This document shows, one piece after another, positions 52,199 to 64,000 of a DNA stretch of 64,000 bases. Made by a program: the position numbers and the translations under genes. Source of the stretch: Candidatus Bathyarchaeota archaeon (lineage in GTDB: Archaea; Thermoproteota; Bathyarchaeia; Bathyarchaeales; Bathycorpusculaceae); NCBI GenBank assembly GCA_963717465.1, contig OY970340.1, positions 1,728,001-1,792,000 on the forward strand, written 5' to 3'. Positions within the stretch are counted from its first letter, which is position 1. Each line of letters begins with the position of its first letter. The notes beneath the pieces were generated by a model. It made no database searches. It worked only from the letters and a program-made list of their open reading frames with translations, and was not told the DNA's origin.

Positions 52199-55100
52199 TT
52201 GACTGAAATACAAAAAGAAGATATTCATTCACTTCTTAAAGCGTTTTTCAACGATAAAGGATTGGTAAGGCAACATTTAGACAGCTACAACGAATTCATC
52301 GATCATGGACTTCAAGAAGTCGTCGATGAAGTAGCAGAGATTCCAATTGAAGTGCCAGAAAATCCCTACAAAGTGAAACTTGGTCAAATCTGGGTTATAG
52401 ATCCTCAATCAAGGATTACTGGGCCGTACGTCACGGAAGTTGACGGAACAAAGCATGAAATCTACCCAACAGAAGCAAGATTGAGAAACTTGGCTTATTC
52501 AGCTCCAGTCGCGTTAGAAATGACGCCGATAATTGATGGGCGAGAACAAGATACAGAACTTGTTTACATTGGAAACATACCTGTCATGCTTAAATCAAAA
52601 CTTTGTTTCCTGTCACAATTATCAAAAGAAGAACTAATCACTGCCGGTGAAGACCCTGATGATCCAGGTGGTTACTTCGTTGTTAACGGTTCTGAAAGAG
52701 TTATAGTTGCGATGGAAGACTTAGCTCCAAACCGTGTAATTGTTGACATTGACGAAAAAGGTACATCACCCGTTTATCAAGCAAAAATATTCTCAACAAC
52801 CGTGGGCTTCAGAGCAAGAATTGAGCTTAAACTCAAATCAGACGACGCAATCTACGTTACAATGCCAGGAGTGCCTACTGAAATTCCATTCGTCGTAATC
52901 ATGCGAGCGCTCAACCTTGAAAAAGACAAGGAAATCGCAGAGGCAGTCTCACTTGACAAGGAACTTCAAGCTCAACTTGCCGCTTCCTTCGAAAAAGCCA
53001 TCGGTGTAGAAACCCCCTCAGATGCAATTCTCTTTATTGGAAACCGAGTAGCACACGGCCAAGTGGAAGAGTATCGTCTTCAAAAGGCGGAGACTGCTCT
53101 TGACAAGAACTTTTTGCCTCACCTTGGACGGAGCGATAAAAACCGTAAAGAAAAAGCAATCTTTCTGGGTGAAATGGCCTACCGAGTTCTGCAATTAAAA
53201 ACAGGCAGGCGTCAACCAGACGACAAAGATCACTTCAAGAACAAACGTTTACGTCTCGGTGGACCATTGCTCGCTGACCTTTTCCGAGTATCGTTCAGAA
53301 ATCTTACACGGGACATAAAATATCAACTTGAACGCATTGGCGTTAAAGGACCGATAATCACCGTTTCTGCAGCAGTGCGACCTGGAATTATTACTGAACG
53401 ATTCCAACATGCACTGGCAACTGGTAACTGGGGAAGAGGTAGAGTCGGCATCACACAACTTTTAGACCGAACAAATTACATTTCAACATTAAGTCACCTG
53501 CGAAGATTACAGTCACCCTTAAGTCGAAGCCAACCTAACTTTGAAGCTCGAGACCTACACCCTACACACTGGGGTCGATTATGTCCAAACGAAACTCCAG
53601 AAGGCTCAAACTGTGGTCTAGTTAAAAACTTGGCTTTATCAGCCTCAATTGCTGTAGGCGTAAATCCTGATAAAGTGAAGCAACTACTTTTCGAAATGGG
53701 TACAACTCCAGTAGGCGAGGCAAGTATAGATTTACGAATGTCAGGAGCAAAAGTCTTCGTTGACGGCAACATAATTGGCTACTGTAATTCACCTGCCGAA
53801 ATGGTCAAAATTATCCGTGAAAAAAGACGCACAGGTGAAGTCTCAACTGAAGTTAACGTGACACACTTCTCAAAAGCACTAACCGAAACTGAAGAGCTAC
53901 ATGCTAACTGCGACGAAGGCAGAGTACGACGCCCACTCATTATCGTCGACAAAGGCGTTCCTAAACTTCAACCTAACCACCTAGAAAAAATAAGTCTAGG
54001 CGAGTGGACATGGGAAGATCTAGTTAAAAGCGGTTTAATCGAGTACTTAGATGCGGAAGAAGAGGAAAACGCTTACGTAGCCATGAACGTAAACTCTATC
54101 ACCCCTAAAACGACCCATCTGGAGATAGCGCCTTACACAATTCTAGGCATATGCGCATCAACGATACCCTATCCAGAACACAATCAGTCACCACGTAACT
54201 CTTATCAAGCCGCTATGGCCAAACAAGCTCTCGGAATCTACGGAACCAATTTCCATCACAGAGTAGATTCCAGATCACACATACTACACTACCCACAAGT
54301 GCCGCTAGTGGAAACCGAACTCATGGAAGTCATGGGATACAAGCAACGCCCAACCGGACAAAACTGCATCGTAGCAGTGCTCAGCTTCGAAGGCTACAAC
54401 ATGGAGGACGCCATAATCTTCAACAAAGCCTCAATCGAACGAGGACTAGCGCGCTCAACATTCTACAGAATATACGAAGCTGAATGTCGCCAATATCTTG
54501 GTGGATTAAAAGACAGATTCACCGTTCCTGAAGCAGGAACAAGAGGTTTCAGAGGAGAACAATACTATCGCCTCTTAGAACCCGATGGTATCATAAGCCT
54601 GGAGTCAGCTGTAGTAGGCGGAGACGTTCTCATCGGTAGAATCAGCCCTCCAAGATTCCTTGAAGAATACAAGGAATTCGAAGTCAGAGGTCCGTCAATG
54701 CGTGACACTTCAATAGACATGAGACCTTCAGAAACCGGAATAGTTGACGGAATTTTCATAACAGCTTCCGGCGAAGGCAGCCAACTTGTTAAAGTAAGAG
54801 TTCGTGATCAGCGAGTTCCCGAGCTAGGCGACAAGTTTGCATCACGCCACGGACAAAAAGGAGTAATTGGCTTAATCGTTCCACAGGAAGATATGCCCTT
54901 CACAGGTGAAGGCATAACTCCAGATTTAATAATTAATCCTCACGCTATACCCTCAAGAATGACTGTCGGTCAATTCATCGAATCTCTAGCAGGAAAAGCA
55001 GCAGCGGCAAGAGGCAGACCTGTTGATGGCACACCTTTCGCTAATGAAGGCCCAATCGAAGTCCGGAATAACCTCGTGAAGCTTGGTTTCAGTCACACTG

Positions 55101-55564
55101 GAAGCGAAGTCTTCTACAATGGTGCAACTGGAGAAAAATTCGTCGCAGACATTTTTGTCGGCATTGTATATTATCAAAAACTGCATCATATGGTTGCTGA
55201 CAAGATTCATGCAAGAGCCCGTGGGCAAGTCCAAATGTTAACAAGGCAACCAACAGAAGGTCGCGCTAGAGGTGGTGGTCTGAGGTTCGGAGAAATGGAG
55301 CGAGACTGCCTAATTGGGCATGGTGCTGCTATGCTGCTTAGAGATAGGTTGCTTGAAGAATCTGACAAATACACTCTTTACATCTGCGAAAACTGTGGTC
55401 AGATTTCATATTATGATATGAAGCAAAGGCGTTACGTATGCAAGATTTGCGATGAGAAAGCAAAGATTTCGCCAGTAATTGTCTCTTACGCATTCAAGCT
55501 TTTGCTGCAAGAACTTCAAAGCTTGTGTATCACGCCAAAGTTAAGACTTAAGGAGAAGGCTTAG
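52199..55564 (+). CDS. rpoB: DNA-directed RNA polymerase subunit B (Rpo2, undivided)
   Basis: GGYFVVNGSERV, ETPEGSNCGLVKN, GYNMEDA, GDKFASRHGQKG, GGLRFGEMERD. Confidence 0.99.
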   Translation: MTEIQKEDIHSLLKAFFNDKGLVRQHLDSYNEFIDHGLQEVVDEVAEIPIEVPENPYKVKLGQIWVIDPQSRITGPYVTEVDGTKHEIYPTEARLRNLAYSAPVALEMTPIIDGREQDTELVYIGNIPVMLKSKLCFLSQLSKEELITAGEDPDDPGGYFVVNGSERVIVAMEDLAPNRVIVDIDEKGTSPVYQAKIFSTTVGFRARIELKLKSDDAIYVTMPGVPTEIPFVVIMRALNLEKDKEIAEAVSLDKELQAQLAASFEKAIGVETPSDAILFIGNRVAHGQVEEYRLQKAETALDKNFLPHLGRSDKNRKEKAIFLGEMAYRVLQLKTGRRQPDDKDHFKNKRLRLGGPLLADLFRVSFRNLTRDIKYQLERIGVKGPIITVSAAVRPGIITERFQHALATGNWGRGRVGITQLLDRTNYISTLSHLRRLQSPLSRSQPNFEARDLHPTHWGRLCPNETPEGSNCGLVKNLALSASIAVGVNPDKVKQLLFEMGTTPVGEASIDLRMSGAKVFVDGNIIGYCNSPAEMVKIIREKRRTGEVSTEVNVTHFSKALTETEELHANCDEGRVRRPLIIVDKGVPKLQPNHLEKISLGEWTWEDLVKSGLIEYLDAEEEENAYVAMNVNSITPKTTHLEIAPYTILGICASTIPYPEHNQSPRNSYQAAMAKQALGIYGTNFHHRVDSRSHILHYPQVPLVETELMEVMGYKQRPTGQNCIVAVLSFEGYNMEDAIIFNKASIERGLARSTFYRIYEAECRQYLGGLKDRFTVPEAGTRGFRGEQYYRLLEPDGIISLESAVVGGDVLIGRISPPRFLEEYKEFEVRGPSMRDTSIDMRPSETGIVDGIFITASGEGSQLVKVRVRDQRVPELGDKFASRHGQKGVIGLIVPQEDMPFTGEGITPDLIINPHAIPSRMTVGQFIESLAGKAAAARGRPVDGTPFANEGPIEVRNNLVKLGFSHTGSEVFYNGATGEKFVADIFVGIVYYQKLHHMVADKIHARARGQVQMLTRQPTEGRARGGGLRFGEMERDCLIGHGAAMLLRDRLLEESDKYTLYICENCGQISYYDMKQRRYVCKICDEKAKISPVIVSYAFKLLLQELQSLCITPKLRLKEKA

Positions 55565-55565
55565 A

Positions 55566-58500
55566 ATGTCGAACGAGGAATTAATACATAAAGTAGTTGA
55601 TGAAATTTCATTTGGCTTAATTTCACCTAAAGATTTGCGTAAGCAATCAGTCGTCGAAATTCAGACACCAGACACTTATGATGAAGATGGCACGCCTATC
55701 ACTGCAGGCTTAATGGACGGCAGGCTTGGCACACTTGAGCCAAGGCAAAGATGTAAAACATGCGGCAACACTGCTATCCGATGCCCGGGGCACTTTGGAC
55801 ATATAGAATTAGCAGTTCCAATTGTGCATATTGAATTTACGAAAATTATTTTCGATCTCTTAAAATGCACTTGCCGTAGTTGCGGGCGCATACTCTTATC
55901 AGAAGAAGCCTCAAAGAAAGCTCAAGGTAGAATTGAAAGATTCAACGAGCTTTTAGGCACAATTCCAGACGAAGTTTACAAGGAGATAACGAGTGAAATC
56001 AAAACTAAACAGTGCCCATATTGCGCTTCCGTTCAGTACAAAATAACTTTTGAGAAACCAACCAAGTTTATTGAGCAAACTGAAGCAGGTTCTGAGCCTT
56101 TAACTCCAAGCATGATTCGTGAAAGGCTCGAAAGAATTTCTGACGAAGACTTGGAAATATTAGGTTTTAATCCAAAGGTTGCGCGGCCTGAATGGATGGT
56201 TCTCCAAGTTTTGCCTGTGCCGCCAGTCTACGTTCGCCCATCAATTACGCTAGAGTCAGGCATTCGCTCTGAAGATGACTTAACCCACAAACTTGTGGAT
56301 ATCATTAGAATTAACCAGCGCTTGAAAGAAAACATGGAGGCAGGAGCTCCAACACTTATTATTCAAGACTTATCCGAATTATTACAGTACCATGTCACCA
56401 CATACTTTAACAATGAAGCTTCAGGTATTCCACCCGCAAGGCATCGTTCAGGAAGAGCACTAAAAACTATCTCACAAAGATTAAAAGGAAAAGAAGGCCG
56501 CTTTAGAAGCAACCTTTCAGGCAAAAGAGTTGACTTTTCAGCTCGCACAGTAATTTCTCCAGACCCGAACCTTGACATAAACGAAGTTGGTGTACCCCAA
56601 GACATTGCAATGCGTCTATCTGTTCCGGAAAAAGTCACCGCTTGGAACATTGAAGAAATGAAGAAATTTGTAATTAACGGTCCCGAAAATTATCCTGGTG
56701 CCTTGTACATTATTAGGCCAGATGGGAAACGTATCCGATTGGAATTTGTCGTTGACCGAACAAAAATTGCTGATGCAGTAGAATTGGGCTTTGTGGTCGA
56801 GCGACACCTTAAAAACGGCGATATAGCTATCTTTAATCGGCAGCCTTCGCTTCACCGCATGTCTATAATGGCCCATTATGTAAGAGTTCTACCTTACAAA
56901 ACTTTTAGACTTCACCTTTGTGTTTGTCCACCATACAACGCAGATTTTGATGGAGATGAAATGAACCTTCACGTTCCACAAAGCGAAGAAGCCCGAACTG
57001 AATCATTATTGTTAATGCAAGTCCAAGATCAGATACTCTCACCAAGATTTGGTGGACCCATTATAGGTGCTATCAGAGATTTCATAACAAGCGCTTATTA
57101 CTTCACCAGAAAATCAAATTATTTGACAAGTGCTCAAGTAAATAGGCTTCTAACAGCTACTGGTTATTATGGTCCGCTACCTGAGCCTGCGATTAATGAT
57201 CCAGCGCCCATGTGGTCAGGTAAACAAATCTTCAGTCTGTTTTTGCCAAAGACCCTGAACTATGTCTTGAAAGCAAATATTTGCCAAGGATGCACGAAAT
57301 GCGAAGAAGAAGACTGCAAACATGACGCTTACGTGGTTGTTAAAAACGGTCAATTAGTTTCAGGAATTATCGATAGACGATCTATCGGTTCCGAACAATC
57401 AGAAAGTCTGCTTCATCGAATAATCAAAGACTACGGAACTCAAGCAGGAAGGCAGTTCCTTAACAATATTACCCGTTTGCTAAAACTTTTCATTTCAATG
57501 CGTGGCTTCAGTTACACTTATGACCAACTAGTTTTGTCGCCAAGGGCAGAAAACAGAATCAAGAAGACGATGGAGCGAATACAAAAGAAGATTGATGAGC
57601 ACATACAGAATTACCGTGATGGAACGTTGCCGCGGTTGCCTGGTCAAACACTCGAAGAATCCTTTGAAATCTATGTAATGCATGAACTTGCAACAGCAAG
57701 AGATGAAGCAGGTAAAATAGCAGACGACGACTTTACATTGGAGAACGCTGGCATCGTCATGACGAGAACTGGCGCCAGAGGTTCAAGCTTAAATATTGGT
57801 CAGATAGCTGCTTGTGTTGGTCAGCAATCAGTGCGAGGTAAACGTATTCTGCGAGGTTATGCTGGACGTGCATTGCCACATTTTGTTGAAGGTGACCCTA
57901 GTCCAAGGGCAAGGGGCTTTGTTTATAATTCTTACCAGTCAGGCTTGGACGCTATTGAATTCTTCTTCCATGCTATGGGTGGCCGCGAAGGTCTAGTAGA
58001 CACTGCGGTGCGAACTCAACAGAGTGGCTACATGCAAAGACGATTAATTAATGCTCTGGAACATATTCGTCTTGAATATGACGAGACAGTTCGTGATTCA
58101 GCTGGTGACATTATCCAATTCCGGTACGGTGAAGATGGCGTAGACCCAGCAAAAAGTGATCATGGTAAAGCAGTAAACGTTAGTAGATTGATTGACCAAA
58201 TCAAAATCGGCGAAGAGAAAGGTGGTACGCCAGCAACTCCTGAGTTCATTAAGGAGCAATTAAAGGACGTCCAGGAACAGTTAACGCCTATTCTAATGGA
58301 TCAACTTAAAACTAACTTGAGTAAAAATAAGCTTAGCAAGAAAGGTGTTGAAAAAGCAACAACGCAAACAGCTGAGCAGTATAAGCGAGCTTTGATGGAG
58401 CCTGGTGAAGCAGTCGGTATAGTTGCGGCTCAATCAATCGGTGAACCTGGAACTCAGATGACTCTCAGAACTTTCCACTATGCAGGAGTCAAAGAACAAA

Positions 58501-59408
58501 ACGTCACCTTAGGTTTGCCTCGTTTAATCGAGATTGTAGACGCCCGCAGAATTCCTTCTACTCCCATTATGACTATTTACTTGATTGGTGAACACGCGAA
58601 AAGCAAGGAAGGTGCAGTTAAAGTCGCACGTGATCTGATTTATACTTCTCTTGAAAATTTAGCTTCAATAATTTACGAGGACCCAGTTAAAGAGGAAATC
58701 GTTGTTGAACTAACTAAGTCGATGATGGATGACCGCGCAATTACGATGGATGATTTGAAAGAGCGTCTTGAAGCACAATTGCAGAATGCTACCGTAAATG
58801 TGTTAGATGACAGAGTTGAAATTAAGCCAAAGAAAGCTGAAGCTTTAAAGAGGATGCTTGGCAAGATTCCAGGTCTCCACGTCAAAGGTGTACCTGATAT
58901 TAAAAGAGTATTGGTTACAGAAGAAAGCGGTGAATGGGTTATTCGGACTGATGGCTCAAACTTATCTAAAGTGCTTGAGATAACTGGTGTTGACACTTCA
59001 CGAACATCCACTAATAACATTCATGAAATCGCCAAAACTTTAGGTATAGAAGCTTCAAGAAATGCGTTAGTTAATGAGGCAAAAGGCGTCTTGGAAGATC
59101 AAGGCTTAGACGTCGATGTCCGCCACGTTATGCTTGTAGCAGATATGATGACCACAACTGGAGATGTTCAACAAATCGGCAGACATGGCATCAGTGGCAA
59201 GAAAGCCAGTGTTTTGGCTCGTGCAGCATTCGAAATCACTGTTCCAAACATTGTGGAAGCGGCAGTTAAGGGTGAAAGTGACCCATTAGCAGGCGTAACT
59301 GAAAACGTAATAGTTGGGCAGTCCATTCCAATCGGCACAGGCTTAGTTGAATTATACATGTCAACTTTTGAAAAACAAGAAAAAGAAGGAGGAAAAACTG
59401 AAACATGA
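55566..59408 (+). CDS. rpoA1: DNA-directed RNA polymerase subunit A, fused A'/A'' (Rpo1)
   Basis: CPGHFGHIEL, YNADFDGDEMN, GYMQRRL, then in the same frame AAQSIGEPGTQMTLRTFH and ARAAFE. Confidence 0.99.
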   Translation: MSNEELIHKVVDEISFGLISPKDLRKQSVVEIQTPDTYDEDGTPITAGLMDGRLGTLEPRQRCKTCGNTAIRCPGHFGHIELAVPIVHIEFTKIIFDLLKCTCRSCGRILLSEEASKKAQGRIERFNELLGTIPDEVYKEITSEIKTKQCPYCASVQYKITFEKPTKFIEQTEAGSEPLTPSMIRERLERISDEDLEILGFNPKVARPEWMVLQVLPVPPVYVRPSITLESGIRSEDDLTHKLVDIIRINQRLKENMEAGAPTLIIQDLSELLQYHVTTYFNNEASGIPPARHRSGRALKTISQRLKGKEGRFRSNLSGKRVDFSARTVISPDPNLDINEVGVPQDIAMRLSVPEKVTAWNIEEMKKFVINGPENYPGALYIIRPDGKRIRLEFVVDRTKIADAVELGFVVERHLKNGDIAIFNRQPSLHRMSIMAHYVRVLPYKTFRLHLCVCPPYNADFDGDEMNLHVPQSEEARTESLLLMQVQDQILSPRFGGPIIGAIRDFITSAYYFTRKSNYLTSAQVNRLLTATGYYGPLPEPAINDPAPMWSGKQIFSLFLPKTLNYVLKANICQGCTKCEEEDCKHDAYVVVKNGQLVSGIIDRRSIGSEQSESLLHRIIKDYGTQAGRQFLNNITRLLKLFISMRGFSYTYDQLVLSPRAENRIKKTMERIQKKIDEHIQNYRDGTLPRLPGQTLEESFEIYVMHELATARDEAGKIADDDFTLENAGIVMTRTGARGSSLNIGQIAACVGQQSVRGKRILRGYAGRALPHFVEGDPSPRARGFVYNSYQSGLDAIEFFFHAMGGREGLVDTAVRTQQSGYMQRRLINALEHIRLEYDETVRDSAGDIIQFRYGEDGVDPAKSDHGKAVNVSRLIDQIKIGEEKGGTPATPEFIKEQLKDVQEQLTPILMDQLKTNLSKNKLSKKGVEKATTQTAEQYKRALMEPGEAVGIVAAQSIGEPGTQMTLRTFHYAGVKEQNVTLGLPRLIEIVDARRIPSTPIMTIYLIGEHAKSKEGAVKVARDLIYTSLENLASIIYEDPVKEEIVVELTKSMMDDRAITMDDLKERLEAQLQNATVNVLDDRVEIKPKKAEALKRMLGKIPGLHVKGVPDIKRVLVTEESGEWVIRTDGSNLSKVLEITGVDTSRTSTNNIHEIAKTLGIEASRNALVNEAKGVLEDQGLDVDVRHVMLVADMMTTTGDVQQIGRHGISGKKASVLARAAFEITVPNIVEAAVKGESDPLAGVTENVIVGQSIPIGTGLVELYMSTFEKQEKEGGKTET

Positions 59409-59740
59409 TAGATATAGACAAAGCGTTAGCTTCAGCCGTGAAAACTGGTAAAGTATCTTTCGGAGCCAACTCGGCGCTGCAAAACGCCAAAACAGGCAAG
59501 GCTAAGATGATTGTTTTAGCCTCAAATTGTCCAAAAAACATAAAAGAGGATATAGAATATTATGCTAAAATCTCCAAGGTTCCAGTATTGTCTTATAGAG
59601 GTACATCGATGGATTTAGCTGAAACATGCAGTAAAATGTTCATCATTTCAGCCTTGATAATAAGGGAAACTGGGGATTCAGAGATTCTTAAGGTAACCGA
59701 AATTAAAGAGTTACAAGAAAACCTTGGAGGAAATGAATGA
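59405..59740 (+). CDS. rpl30e: 50S ribosomal protein L30e
   Basis: AVKTGKVSFG...KAKMIVLASNCP; canonical position after rpoA. Confidence 0.96.
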   Translation: MIDIDKALASAVKTGKVSFGANSALQNAKTGKAKMIVLASNCPKNIKEDIEYYAKISKVPVLSYRGTSMDLAETCSKMFIISALIIRETGDSEILKVTEIKELQENLGGNE

Positions 59741-60174
59741 CAACCGGCATAAAAATCACAGCTGACGAAATGCGTTATATTGCATTGTTTGAAAGCATAA
59801 GCGGCGCCAGCGTGAAGGACTGCATAATTGATGAGGAGCAAGAACGCGCCATATTTATCGTAAACCCTGGACAAGTGGGCGTAGCTATTGGCAAAGGCGG
59901 CAGAAACATCCACACTCTTGAAAGAATGACCGGGAAAAAACATGAAATAATAGAGTACTCAGAAGACCCAGTTCAATTCATGAAAAACGCACTAAAACCC
60001 GCAGCAGTCCGAGAAATCCGCGTCACAGAACGAACCGATGGAAAAAAAATGGCAGTCATCACAGTAAATCCGAAAGACAAAGGCGTCGCCATAGGCAAAA
60101 ACGGCAAAAACGCTGAACGTCTTCGCTTCTTAGCAAAACGGTATTTTGACATTCAAAACGTGAGCATCACCTAA
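59737..60174 (+). CDS. nusA: Archaeal NusA (two KH domains)
   Basis: GVAIGKGGRNI and GVAIGKNGKN; follows L30e. Confidence 0.96.
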   Translation: MTTGIKITADEMRYIALFESISGASVKDCIIDEEQERAIFIVNPGQVGVAIGKGGRNIHTLERMTGKKHEIIEYSEDPVQFMKNALKPAAVREIRVTERTDGKKMAVITVNPKDKGVAIGKNGKNAERLRFLAKRYFDIQNVSIT

Positions 60175-60351: not shown

Positions 60352-61425
60352 TCAATCTCTTGATAGGAAAATAAAATGTTCTCCCTTGGCCATGGCTTCA
60401 AGTTTAGCTAATCCTTTAAAGCTAAACTCTTCACTCAGAAGCCGCCTGTCTGATGCAACACGTCTAAATCTTTTTAAAAAAAGCATGTTCATTTTTAGGA
60501 AGTCTTCAAGGACATAAACCAGATTAGTTCCTTTCTTAATCAATGACCACTCATATAAAACGAGATCTACCATGTAGCAGAATAAAATCTTAGGCCAAAC
60601 TGAAAGCCTAGCTACCTTTAAGCATGCAGCATTTTGATTAAGAACCGCACCACGAAGTGTTTTTTGGGAAATTAACAAACGATTAGTAGTTTCACCGCCT
60701 TTATGAAGCGCCCTAATTGAAGGAACAAATAACATTTTGAATCCAGCCGTGATCATTCGCCACCCAAAATCAACATCTTCATAAACATAATAAAAAGTCC
60801 CATCAAAACCATTTAAAGCTAAAAAACTCTGCTTTTGCACAAGCATAAAAGCACCACGCATTGAAGGTAGTTCCTCAGCTTGAAGTTTGCCGCTGACATT
60901 TGCAAGTGGCCTGTCAAGACTTCTCACGTATGCATTATAACGACCACCACTGTATTTTTCGATGAAGTCGCCGGCAGAATCTACAATTTCTCCACCAAAG
61001 CGTAAAATCAAAGGTTGTACACCTTGGCAGATGTTTTTATTTAAATATTCAACAAGTGGTGAAATATCGTCTAGAACTGCTGCATCATCATCAACGAAAA
61101 GAAGATTAGGCGATTGAGACAGAGAAACGCCAACATTTCTTCCATAAGCAGGCCCTCTGTCCGAACCCGAGTAAGCCAACTTAATGGTTATCAAATTAGG
61201 ACTGAAGTCCAAAAAAGCAGCTAAGTATTTTTCAGTATCTTTTAAATTTTCTACTAAGTCAGCAACCAGAATTATTTCATGAATATTGGACAAGTTACAA
61301 GTTGAATCAAGCAATGTATAAATATTTTCATTAGGAAACTTTTTTAAAACTACAATCACGCTCAACTCGCACGGACGTGAAAAATATTTACAGGTTTTAA
61401 TGTTTTTGATGATCTTGCTCATCAA
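60352..61425 (-). CDS. Glycosyltransferase family 2
   Basis: GPAYGRNVG, LFVDDD, GAFMLV, GFDGTFYYVYEDVDFGWR. Confidence 0.9.
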   Translation of the reverse strand: MMSKIIKNIKTCKYFSRPCELSVIVVLKKFPNENIYTLLDSTCNLSNIHEIILVADLVENLKDTEKYLAAFLDFSPNLITIKLAYSGSDRGPAYGRNVGVSLSQSPNLLFVDDDAAVLDDISPLVEYLNKNICQGVQPLILRFGGEIVDSAGDFIEKYSGGRYNAYVRSLDRPLANVSGKLQAEELPSMRGAFMLVQKQSFLALNGFDGTFYYVYEDVDFGWRMITAGFKMLFVPSIRALHKGGETTNRLLISQKTLRGAVLNQNAACLKVARLSVWPKILFCYMVDLVLYEWSLIKKGTNLVYVLEDFLKMNMLFLKRFRRVASDRRLLSEEFSFKGLAKLEAMAKGEHFIFLSRD

Positions 61426-61519: not shown

Positions 61520-61771
61520 TTAGAATCGATGATTCTTTCTGCTATGGAGATTCAAATCTTCTTCTGTATTGAAAATTCTGCCGCATTTTTGGCAAGTCAA
61601 GATGCTAGAGTTTACGCCAAGTATTGGTATCGAAGGTTTATCCGAGACAAGTGCCGGAATTTCCTTTGGCTCAGGCAGCATCTTTTCCGCTCTCGAAGGC
61701 ACGTCTCTTGGTCTTTTATCGTAGGGAAAGTCGGGTTCACTCAAGTGTGTTGTCGACCTCAAGATGACCAT
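61520..61771 (-). CDS. Small C2H2 zinc-finger protein
   Basis: CQKCGRIFNTEEDLNLHSRKNH. Confidence 0.7.
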   Translation of the reverse strand: MVILRSTTHLSEPDFPYDKRPRDVPSRAEKMLPEPKEIPALVSDKPSIPILGVNSSILTCQKCGRIFNTEEDLNLHSRKNHRF

Positions 61772-61824: not shown

Positions 61825-62511
61825 TTATTCGTCGATTTCTTGATTTTCTTCTGCTGTTTCTTCGATTTCTTGGTCTTCTTCTGCTTCTTCCTTATTTCCA
61901 TGCGTTACTGATTGGTTTGCGTCTGTTCTTTCTGCAGCCAGTAGCATGTCAATAAGCGCTTTTTCATCCACTTCAGCTCTTGTTCTCCAATCTAAGAACA
62001 ACTGTTGCTTTTCATCCTGCGTGAGGTAACCATATCGTATGTATCTTTCAATGTTCAAACCTACTTTCCACTCTGGCAACTTTTCGCCAAGCAATTTCTC
62101 AACATCAGTTCGTGACGCTTGTCCCTTCTTGCTAATAATGTATGAGATTGTGATGGCTAAGCCCGCAAGGTCATCAACGCGCCAACCAATCATTTTTGGT
62201 TCTTTTGAAGCTGTGTCGCTTCGTAGTGTTATATAAAAGCGTGCTTTATCCAACTCGTCTAGAGTAGGCTTTTCTGCAGGCGCCTTTTGCTCTTCAAAAA
62301 CTATTTTGACCTCTAAATCCAAATTTTTTAAATGGTCGTCTAAAATGTCGAGCACTTTTGGGTAATCTGAACCTAATGCCTTGTGTAGCTCCCACCCTTT
62401 AACGCCGGGTTTTTGGTGGCGCTTGTAGAGGAGTATCTGAGTTGCACGTTTGATTTTGCCAGCATAGGTGCCTTTTTTTTTGATGCTCAAGTTAATTCTC
62501 CTCGTTTCCAT
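61825..62511 (-). CDS. Kite (tandem winged-helix) subunit, Nse3/MAGE-like
   Basis: KIKRATQILLYKRHQKPG; LAGLAITISYIISKKGQASRTDVEKLL; YIRYGYL...DWRTRAEVDEKALIDML; acidic tail; overlaps the kleisin stop. Confidence 0.7.
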   Translation of the reverse strand: METRRINLSIKKKGTYAGKIKRATQILLYKRHQKPGVKGWELHKALGSDYPKVLDILDDHLKNLDLEVKIVFEEQKAPAEKPTLDELDKARFYITLRSDTASKEPKMIGWRVDDLAGLAITISYIISKKGQASRTDVEKLLGEKLPEWKVGLNIERYIRYGYLTQDEKQQLFLDWRTRAEVDEKALIDMLLAAERTDANQSVTHGNKEEAEEDQEIEETAEENQEIDE

Positions 62512-63314
62512 TTCTGCCAGTTTTCACAGCTAACCGCGATTGGAACGGATGTGGATTGCTTGCTCAACAGTTTAGTCTGCTGCTGGTCGTATGCTTTAAT
62601 GTGAATAGTTTCTTCTAACTTATCAATCTCCAACGATGCATAACCATAGGTAACCAAGAAACTAGTCAAGAATGCTCGCTGCACAGTCTCTTCATACGTG
62701 TCGTCTCCGATGAAATCCCAGTAGTTTATTTTGCCCTCTGATCCTTTCTCTTCTATTTTGCTTTTTAATTCCTGCCAGTAGCTTTCAAGCTCATTCGAAA
62801 ATTCTATGTCACTTAAAACTCGCTGTGCAATTAATTCATCTCTGCTTGCAGCACCCATAGCAACTTGTGGGGCATCAAAACCTTTCCATCTTTGATTAAT
62901 AGGCGTTAATGCTTCCCAATAAAGCAGTCCATCTGCGATGCTGCGAAGGTTAAGCTGCTCCATCTCAATTATTGGATGCCACGCTTTAAGGAAAATGCTT
63001 GTTATTTGTTGTTTTGGTGTATGCATTATTTTTTCTTCTAAAAGAAACGGGTCAGTATAGAGTGAGGTTGAACGATGCTTAACCCATTCGCTCTGAAGTT
63101 TAATTACTGATGCTAAATGGTGGATTGCTTCTGAATCCAAGTTTAATTCTTCTGGTTGTTTCCAGTCAGGAAAATACTCTCTCACTAGTGCAATTATTTC
63201 ATCCACGTCCAGCGTAAAAGGGTCAACTGCATGATTCTCAATACCAACACATCTTTCTATAACTAATTGTAGTTTCTCTTTGCCCATTTTTTTACGTGAT
63301 TCATTTGAAGACAT
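62487..63314 (-). CDS. Kleisin subunit (ScpA-like N-terminus, Nse4-like C-terminal winged helix)
   Basis: VDPFTLDVDEII...ASVIKLQS; KINYWDFIGDDTYEETVQRAFLTSFLVTYG; start overlaps the SMC stop. Confidence 0.75.
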   Translation of the reverse strand: MSSNESRKKMGKEKLQLVIERCVGIENHAVDPFTLDVDEIIALVREYFPDWKQPEELNLDSEAIHHLASVIKLQSEWVKHRSTSLYTDPFLLEEKIMHTPKQQITSIFLKAWHPIIEMEQLNLRSIADGLLYWEALTPINQRWKGFDAPQVAMGAASRDELIAQRVLSDIEFSNELESYWQELKSKIEEKGSEGKINYWDFIGDDTYEETVQRAFLTSFLVTYGYASLEIDKLEETIHIKAYDQQQTKLLSKQSTSVPIAVSCENWQKWKRGELT

Positions 63315-64000
63315 TAAGCCATCTCCCGCACTACTGATTTTCCTTCAACACTTTGCACCGTGATTACGTTTGCGTCTTGTTGGGCAAATGTGATTTGACT
63401 GGGGGTTATAACAATATACTGTGAGGTATTTTCTTTAATTATTGAAACTAGGATTTTCGCGATCATTTCTCTGTTCTTTGGATCCATGTGAATGTCGTAT
63501 TCATCTACCGCTCTAAAAGGTGAACGAACATGTTGTTGTAACGCTAAGAGAAAGCTCATGGTGGCTGTTGTTCGCTCGCCACCGCTTTGTGTGTATGCAT
63601 CCAAAGCCACGGGTTTTCCACCTTTAAACCCGACTAAAATTTCCAAGCCAGCGGTCTCAATTTCTTGAGCGTTAGCCAATCGCACTTCCCCCGTTGCCAG
63701 GGTCTGCTCCATAATCCTTTTGTATTCAACGTTAACGCGGTCCAGTAAATTCTGCATGACTGATTGCCAAGTTTGCATTCTAACGTTAAGTTCTTCAAGG
63801 GTTTTTTGCCTATTTTCAGTTACGATTTCCGCTTTTTCTTTGAGCTCCAAGTAAAGTTTTGAGTACGACTCGTACATGCGTTCAATATCTTCTGAAACAT
63901 CAGCCAAAGAAGCTAAATGCCCGTCTGTAACTCGAATTTCATCAAGGACATCTGAAAAAGGCTTTAAAACAGCTATGCGTTCCCCAAACTGTTCAGCCTT
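63314..64000 (-). CDS. SMC-family ATPase, C-terminal head (Smc5/6-related); truncated by window edge
   Basis: Coiled coil, then LDAYTQSGGERTTATMSFLLALQ...SPFRAVDEYDIHMDPKNR...QYIVITP; frame open to position 64000. Confidence 0.9.
   Translation of the reverse strand, partial: KAEQFGERIAVLKPFSDVLDEIRVTDGHLASLADVSEDIERMYESYSKLYLELKEKAEIVTENRQKTLEELNVRMQTWQSVMQNLLDRVNVEYKRIMEQTLATGEVRLANAQEIETAGLEILVGFKGGKPVALDAYTQSGGERTTATMSFLLALQQHVRSPFRAVDEYDIHMDPKNREMIAKILVSIIKENTSQYIVITPSQITFAQQDANVITVQSVEGKSVVREMA

Follow-up and report, generated by a model that had tools for sequence, protein, structure and literature searches.

We describe an archaeal operon encoding a complex related to eukaryotic Smc5/6, the SMC protein of which is short and, as we conclude with confidence, has no hinge. 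The operon lies at the end of a stretch of 64,000 nucleotides (hereafter the window) from Candidatus Bathyarchaeota archaeon, assembly GCA_963717465.1, contig OY970340.1, positions 1,728,001 to 1,792,000 of the forward strand (G000:C1:1728001-1792000 in our numbering). The source genome, a single contig of 3.05 Mb, is 88% complete by markers. The three genes of the operon encode an SMC of Smc5/6 type, a kleisin of Nse4 type and a kite of Nse1/Nse3 type. The three-gene complex is known, and the operon in the window is a typical member of a published archaeal family; it is the hinge-less build of the SMC, widespread in sampled TACK members, which is apparently undescribed. Features of the locus are as follows, in window coordinates, which are continued beyond the window where needed:

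63314..64000, minus strand: SMC5/6-related ATPase, C-terminal part (returning coiled-coil strand, joint and C-terminal head half; Pfam SMC_N)
Beyond the window, to window-equivalent 65232, minus strand: remainder of the SMC (N-terminal head half with Walker A, outgoing strand and hairpin apex without hinge)
63557..63589, minus strand: ABC signature region of the SMC head, QSGGER-type, near-invariant in 110 homologues
63470..63523, minus strand: Walker B and D-loop of Smc5/6 type (SPFRAVDEYDIHMD...NR), aligned to the human SMC6 motif
62487..63314, minus strand: Nse4-like kleisin, 275 residues; the C-terminal winged helix resembles Nse4_C, the N-terminal helical part weakly resembles the ScpA N-terminus
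61825..62511, minus strand: Nse1/Nse3(MAGE)-like kite, 228 residues; tandem winged helices (residues ~10-195) and an acidic, poorly conserved tail

Three overlapping genes had been proposed here in an earlier note made from the window alone, and all three open reading frames (ORFs) were confirmed at the positions given there, on the minus strand; the signature, Walker B/D-loop, kleisin C-terminal and kite motifs which it quoted are all found in the translations. The kleisin start and the SMC stop share one base (63314), kite and kleisin overlap by 25 bases, and the whole set amounts to about 1,140 residues. The SMC gene runs from its start at window-equivalent 65232 (genome C1 1793232) past the window end to its stop at 63314. 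Because the gene leaves the window, its half-length, hinge-less build escaped the earlier note, which was right about the type of subunit. Close homologues of the window SMC carry the source label Candidatus Bathyarchaeia.

That the genes belong to the SMC5/6-related family is practically certain. A profile of 14 intact relatives of the SMC retrieved Smc5 and Smc6 chains as its ten best matches in the PDB (E-values 2e-49 to 5e-33), the first canonical Smc following at 3e-32. In the profile alignment, Walker B and the D-loop match human SMC6; the D, E, H and D of this region are invariant among the 110 homologues, and the ATPase motifs of the SMC are intact. The PDB ranking and the head-only tree described below agree on a head of Smc5/6 type, just as had been claimed. 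A separate canonical smc-scpA-scpB operon, for which the earlier note had suggested a check, is present in the same genome (G000:C1:321258-326014, L166) and holds its only Pfam hinge; together with the tree placement, this shows that the subunits do not group with canonical Smc, ScpA and ScpB.

Several other identities were tried with an intact relative of the SMC and rejected: canonical Smc (TIGR02169, 173 against a cut-off of 729), ASRP, i.e. the ClsN/Sph type (NF045487, 74.7 bits against a cut-off of 300), and arcadin-4 and Rad50, both cut-offs lying far above the scores obtained.

Judged from its sequence, the kleisin is related to Nse4 and not to ScpA. It reaches 28.9 bits on Pfam Nse4_C (cut-off 26), which bears out the Nse4-like C-terminus noted earlier, and Nse4_C was detected in 54 of 67 kleisin homologues (E-value up to 0.05), ScpA in none of them. 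Searched against the PDB, the kleisin profile found Nse4 first (E-value 2.4e-4) and ScpA weakly, at both ends (0.079). In a comparison with the ScpA-like protein of the same genome, only the C-terminal winged helix aligns.

The kite had to be classified mainly by its predicted fold. The window kite itself has no Pfam match and the kite profile no significant PDB sequence match; among 64 kite homologues, MAGE was detected in six and SMC_Nse1 in three (E-value up to 0.05), ScpB in none. The kite model is a tandem winged helix with a predicted local distance difference test score (pLDDT) of 84 and carries no RING. Foldseek, run with this model, ranked Nse1/Nse3 chains first, a Wadjet chain third and ScpB sixth. 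In VIA-align, Nse1/Nse3 chains again came first (Z 11.5, root-mean-square deviation 3.3, 161 aligned), before ScpB (8.8) and a Wadjet chain (8.1), the Wadjet chains being read as JetB from their length. Two chains of the Nse1-Nse3-Nse4 entry 7dg2 stand near the top in both fold searches, and Atlas language-model features place the kite with MAGE clusters (0.93). Many conserved basic positions are retained. The modelled kite is of the Nse1/3 archetype rather than ScpB- or MukE-like, with modest margins over JetB and ScpB. A MAGE kite had been claimed before: fold, relatives and language-model features uphold the Nse1/Nse3 type, while the sequence likeness is weaker than was implied and Nse3 is not separated from Nse1.

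The Smc5/6-led PDB ranking, the Nse4_C score of the kleisin and the recurring gene order put the resemblance of the operon to Smc5/6 beyond chance. The order SMC-kleisin-kite is found at all 29 relative loci. Among 50 phylum-wide loci, which include four genomes also in the 29-locus set, both partners are present at 49, inverted at one of these, and neither is nearby at one locus. Two loci stand out, L085 (genome G161) and L073 (G131): in one of them the short SMC has no kleisin or kite nearby, in the other the kleisin-kite pair is separated and inverted. A match was obtained in 346 of 401 class genomes and in 105 of 201 phylum genomes.

Such operons are in print already; here and below, the literature is cited for those portions of each paper that our searches covered. 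Yoshinaga & Inagaki 2021 (PMC8665677) report an 'SMC5/6-related' archaeal SMC with 80 homologues, 66 of them from TACK archaea including Bathyarchaeota and 44 beside canonical SMC. Van Hooff et al. (bioRxiv 10.1101/2024.01.07.573240) report an Nse4-related kleisin and an Nse1/3-like kite in three-gene operons of TACK and Asgard archaea. The 'complete minimal prokaryotic counterpart of the Smc5/6 core' proposed by the earlier note therefore holds for its three subunit identities and fails as a novelty. The same note had named ClsN and Sph as established Smc5/6-related archaeal SMCs; this was wrong, because PMC9389158 puts both in a separate zinc-hook family, ASRP, distinct from the 'SMC5/6-related' aSMC. 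The portions of PMC11344861 and PMC7055376 covered here hold nothing further on the SMC5/6-related archaeal clade. Hinge dimerisation is treated as general to SMC proteins both in PMC8665677 and by van Hooff et al., and that most TACK members have 550-700 residues and no hinge is unstated in the two main texts as far as these were searched. No statement on the missing hinge was found by literature searches or by in-paper term searches, outside of which lie the bioRxiv supplement and the journal article of van Hooff et al., either of which may give SMC length. What appears to be new lies in the build, which is directly testable, and not in the three-gene complex as such.

The absence of a hinge can hardly be doubted. 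Intact relatives of the window SMC have about 640 residues (638-641 in most of the genus), and the short forms altogether 548-756, with a median of 639 (137 partly redundant homologues, including some labelled Methanomethylicia, Gagatemarchaeaceae and MSBL1). A hinge profile built for this analysis, from eight archaeal hinges and iterated three times, detected a hinge in none of the 137 short forms (best E-value 0.45). The same profile was positive for 26 of 28 eukaryote-type Smc5/6 sequences, eight of nine canonical-type sequences and 29 of 30 other long forms, positives that are partly given by its construction. Pfam SMC_hinge alone was dropped as a criterion because eukaryote-type Smc5/6 sequences also fail it. 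Nor do any of the 137 short forms possess a central CxxC.

Structure prediction points in the same direction. An AlphaFold2 model of an intact relative (alignment of 110 rows; pLDDT 87, predicted template modelling score 0.62) consists of a head and a bare helical hairpin, i.e. a helix at 165-318, a 7-residue low-confidence loop and a second helix at 326-417, after which come a joint-like break and the C-terminal half of the head; in Foldseek it resembles SMC heads with coiled coil. By our own arithmetic, an arm of about 150 residues would measure about 23 nm at 0.15 nm per residue, canonical SMC having arms of about 50 nm. Conservation over the phylum is lowest at the apex (0.21-0.22, with gaps up to 41%, against 0.7-0.8 in the head), and the neck is better conserved than the apex. 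When the complex of two SMC apex copies was predicted (residues 225-420 of the intact relative, 114-row alignment), the score was 0.12 and the mark 0.42, a result that speaks neither for nor against a contact of the apices.

In the assembly studied, the SMC gene consists of two ORFs of 265 and 339 residues, divided by one frame change. Alignment with five relatives indicates that one base is absent at an A-run near window-equivalent 64455, and we regard the split as probably an assembly error. It is very improbable that the gene is instead a true pseudogene in this strain, in an operon which is decaying. Such a decay would agree with the frame change itself and with the finding that six of 40 relatives have no strong match and that, among the 29 relative loci, one has a split SMC and one a split kleisin. 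The missing base, on the other side, sits at an A-run and both halves are still 73-87% identical to an intact relative. Of the 34 relatives with a strong match, 32 have a single open frame of 640-762 codons, one is cut by a contig end and one is broken. Moreover, other genes of the same assembly are split too: canonical smc into four ORFs, scpB and rad50 into two each, and four frame changes were counted in three of 15 test proteins over 15 kb (a set that includes the window SMC and some opposite-strand ORFs). No reads of this strain were found: no RNA run containing it was listed, and the contigs listed for one DNA run with a 0.10 share are scattered pieces, none of them across the frame change.

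Three further observations touch on these genes. The rad50 ORFs, with CxxC, stand at G000:C1:1581596-1584895 (L167) together with a gene which we take to be mre11-like. A presumed ribosomal protein L1-like gene beyond the window (G000:C1:1798292-1798959) also appears in two ORFs, a further sign of assembly indels. One relative has, near its intact operon, an additional broken copy of the C-terminal SMC half (G010:C16:1408-2416).

A head-only tree was computed under LG+C20+F+G4 from 79 rows and 353 columns, with canonical-type SMC as root. Its rows were picked from 216 candidates together with those of this genome and comprise no Rad50, ASRP, MukB or JetC; P0293 and three Asgard proteins (L137, L139, L148), which the motif pattern failed to catch, are likewise absent. 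One Smc5 and one Smc6 label in the tree were checked; P0197 is labelled hinged and L146 canonical, though the hinge profile detects a hinge in neither. The window SMC falls into a clade of 41 rows, made up of 35 short forms and six CxxC forms (support 99/90), which nests in a larger clade supported at 97/92; the latter also takes in Smc5 and Smc6 of eukaryotes and long rows from archaea, canonical SMC standing apart at 100/100. As to the nearest sister of eukaryotic Smc5/6, the nodes concerned reach only 86/57 and 83/59.

Hinged rows branch both outside and beside the short-form clade. A second lineage of hinge-less SMC5/6-related proteins of about 630 residues (P0204, P0214) is separate from the main short clade. 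Secondary loss is the simpler account of this pattern, and the tree suggests that the hinge was probably lost in this way twice. Asgard members have the same kind of operon with a longer SMC, mostly hinged: Freyarchaeia/Jordarchaeia and close relatives have 823-841 residues with a Pfam hinge, and other genomes of that phylum 965-1,145 residues. The TACK sequences, on account of their hinge-less build, are likely a reduced offshoot and not a model of the eukaryotic ancestor, for which the hinged archaeal forms fit better.

Among the Asgard sequences, an intermediate form of about 835 residues with short arms and a true hinge was observed in Freyarchaeia (L086:5001-8629; also L087-L091), followed by kleisin-like and kite-like genes. 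Other Asgard frames, of about 1,485 codons, encode a very long SMC with a canonical-type head (L146:644-5098, genome G726, and others); for the L146 type a hinge is absent from the top five Pfam matches and from the hinge-profile result.

The short-form clade also harbours a longer paralog:

L092:1444-4644 (genome G312; also in G309, G277, G263, G291 and G306): CxxC paralog, ~1,040 residues (P0134, P0136, P0138, P0271-P0280)

Among the matches listed for the 401 class genomes, this paralog occurs in six, all from one Bathyarchaeia family, and it nests within the short forms of its own family (100/98). These proteins have about 990-1,070 residues and no hinge, and a CxxC in mid-chain is invariant in ten of ten. 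Three genomes carry both forms, the short one within its operon. At the three of six loci where the 3' side is visible, no kleisin or kite lies beside the paralog within about 1.5 kb. We infer that the central CxxC is a zinc hook; this reading rests on motif, position and invariance, as the CxxC region has no significant PDB match and no zinc-hook Pfam family is among the 25 of 28 families listed for ten members.

What the operon does can be proposed by analogy with Smc5/6. The complex would consist of an SMC homodimer, one Nse4-like kleisin and, again by analogy, a homodimer of the single Nse1/3-like kite. Without an apex dimerisation domain, the two SMC chains would be joined only at the head end, through ATP-driven head engagement and through the kleisin, which would connect one chain's neck to the other's cap. 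It would represent the head-proximal module of Smc5/6: the engaged heads on one side and the kleisin-kite pair on the other would clamp double-stranded DNA, which hydrolysis would release. Devoid of a closed arm lumen, it could serve as a local clamp or tether holding replication and repair intermediates, and long-range loop extrusion would be left to the canonical complex. An ATP-gated DNA clamp for genome maintenance is our best guess, and we incline, though not strongly, to a mechanism of clamping and not of extrusion. In yeast, several Smc5/6 subunits take part in clamping DNA (PMC9191643).

One might suppose instead that the hairpin tips or distal arms pack against each other and so replace the hinge, forming a small SMC-kleisin ring able to entrap DNA and to extrude loops or compact chromatin, like other complexes of SMC, kleisin and kite. 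We consider such a miniature motor unlikely, albeit worth serious attention. The complex keeps its head motifs, neck and joint as well as kleisin and kite, and arm length is tightly held within lineages, as in the 638-641 residues seen in most of the genus. Bacillus Smc is functional with a Rad50 zinc hook in place of its hinge (PMC5344682), from which it follows that a hinge fold as such is dispensable, and the CxxC paralog suggests that joining at the apex can be useful in this family. Across the phylum, however, it is exactly the apex that is the least conserved and most indel-rich stretch, and no cysteine pair motif is present there in the 137 short forms. Total length ranges over 548-756 residues, while the arms of Bacillus Smc can take only certain lengths (PMC5344682).

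Recognition and restriction of small circular or foreign DNA, in the manner of eukaryotic Smc5/6 or of Wadjet and Lamassu, is an improbable function. It is true that the short LmuB proteins (about 600 residues, some hook-less) illustrate that shortening and loss of the apex can go with a shift to defence (PMC12663957), and that eukaryotic Smc5/6 is implicated against viral DNA (van Hooff et al., bioRxiv 10.1101/2024.01.07.573240). Nevertheless, the complex is near-universal in the class and found among core genes, unlike a mobile defence system, and the operon lacks a conserved effector gene over 44 loci. The earlier note had seen no JetD-type nuclease after the operon; indeed, no JetD_C (PF09983) match was found in the genome, at its 88% completeness, and no such gene is conserved in the 44 loci. 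In PADLOC, no Wadjet model was matched by the C-terminal SMC piece, the kleisin or the kite, nor by the N-terminal piece among the 25 of 93 matches listed for it. An identity as Wadjet was rejected on the lack of JetD_C. Silencing of extrachromosomal DNA had also been suggested, and the neighbourhood does not point that way. 

Over the 44 loci, neighbours include an ATP-dependent DEXH helicase (13 loci), RNA polymerase genes (10), NucS (8), CdvB-like genes (7) and Orc1/Cdc6 (5), and the divergent upstream gene at the window locus is a DNA ligase. A housekeeping role in genome maintenance is likely: the presence in 346 of 401 class genomes and 105 of 201 phylum genomes speaks for it, as do, weakly, the recurring neighbours.

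Several points weigh against the hinge-less DNA clamp of Smc5/6 type as we read it. Whole families of the phylum are blank (e.g. 0 of 28 and 0 of 16 genomes), so the complex seems dispensable there, and a neighbourhood conserved among kin, which share neighbours anyway, may reflect no more than synteny. In this very assembly, the SMC gene carries a frameshift. For the kite, the Foldseek margins are narrow, with E-values of 2.8e-5 for Nse1/3, 7.4e-5 for JetB and 2.2e-4 for ScpB. The SMC model shows a single chain, taken from a relative and not from this strain, and its apex loop has a pLDDT below 50. In a narrower-family alignment, the apex stretch 321-340 is conserved at 0.66 against 0.49-0.55 in its flanks, so that an apex contact peculiar to the lineage is conceivable. 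Finally, the binding of kleisin and kite and the stoichiometry of the complex are presumed.

To our knowledge, the SMC-kleisin-kite complexes known so far (Smc-ScpAB, MukBEF, Wadjet, Smc5/6) all close their arms with a hinge, and models of loop extrusion assign a role to the hinge or to the closed arm lumen. A hinge-less set that is conserved in the majority of Bathyarchaeia and in roughly half of the phylum as sampled amounts to a natural deletion experiment. Its boldest interpretation, which we put forward as a speculation more apt to be wrong than right, would be that the TACK machine entraps or translocates DNA without any apex dimerisation domain, so that the hinge would lie outside the minimal SMC motor. 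The apex would then be a swappable module: a hinge in Asgard archaea and eukaryotes, lost at least two times, and a zinc-hook-like CxxC with longer arms in the stand-alone paralog of one Bathyarchaeia family. The operon also offers a small prokaryotic handle on the function of the Smc5/6 head module, the role of which van Hooff et al. (bioRxiv 10.1101/2024.01.07.573240) name as an open question.

Other genes around the operon may be listed briefly. An ORF of 83 residues with a C2H2-like finger lies just 3' of the kite on the same strand (window 61520-61771, minus strand; Pfam zf-C2H2 21.9 bits, below the cut-off); we do not count it to the operon because a relative was seen in merely two of the 44 loci. 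Further on, at 60352-61425 (minus strand), there is a family 2 glycosyltransferase, not seen at the other 43 loci. Genes at 52199-60174 (plus strand), which we take from their translations to be RNA polymerase large-subunit, L30e-like and NusA-like genes, converge on the operon, with a similar linkage at 10 of the 44 loci. A protein of about 230 residues (L070:3904-4590; cluster 7), without NCBIfam match, is encoded near the SMC gene start, usually divergently, at 11 of the 44 loci.

Among known systems, canonical Smc-ScpAB and Wadjet JetABCD share with the operon the SMC-kleisin-kite gene set, and the window kite has its fold in common with ScpB, JetB and MukE. Canonical Smc-ScpAB differs by its hinge, its SMC of about 1,180 residues and its ScpA and ScpB, whereas the window SMC has other head motifs and another tree position and the kleisin is of the Nse4_C kind. 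Wadjet has a hinge as well, and JetD is part of it, while none accompanies the window operon.

Two further groups resemble the window SMC in build. Short Lamassu LmuB (PMC12663957) is an SMC-like ATPase of about 600 residues, in some cases without a zinc-hook motif, and provides a precedent; unlike the window SMC, it is derived from SbcC/Rad50 and paired with the effector LmuA, with no Nse4-type kleisin or kite. ASRPs (ClsN/coalescin, Sph1/2; PMC9389158) are likewise short archaeal ATPases of the SMC superfamily (about 600 residues) without the SMC hinge domain. They are mostly zinc-hooked and have no consistent flanking genes (PMC9389158), whereas the window SMC has no central CxxC and resides in a kleisin-kite operon.

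With eukaryotic Smc5/6, the operon shares the head motifs, the Nse4-type C-terminal winged helix and the tandem winged-helix fold of the kite. It has one SMC gene instead of two, one kite instead of two and arms about half as long, with neither a hinge-joined heterodimer nor a RING on the kite; no Nse2/5/6-like gene was found in the operon over the 44 loci, to which the search for Nse2/5/6 was confined. The closest likeness is to the published archaeal SMC5/6-related complex, with which the operon agrees in its three subunits, its arrangement, its taxa and the canonical smc-scpA-scpB alongside. The difference lies in the SMC itself, which is short and hinge-less in the window type, whereas tested Asgard members have 830-1,145 residues and are mostly hinged.

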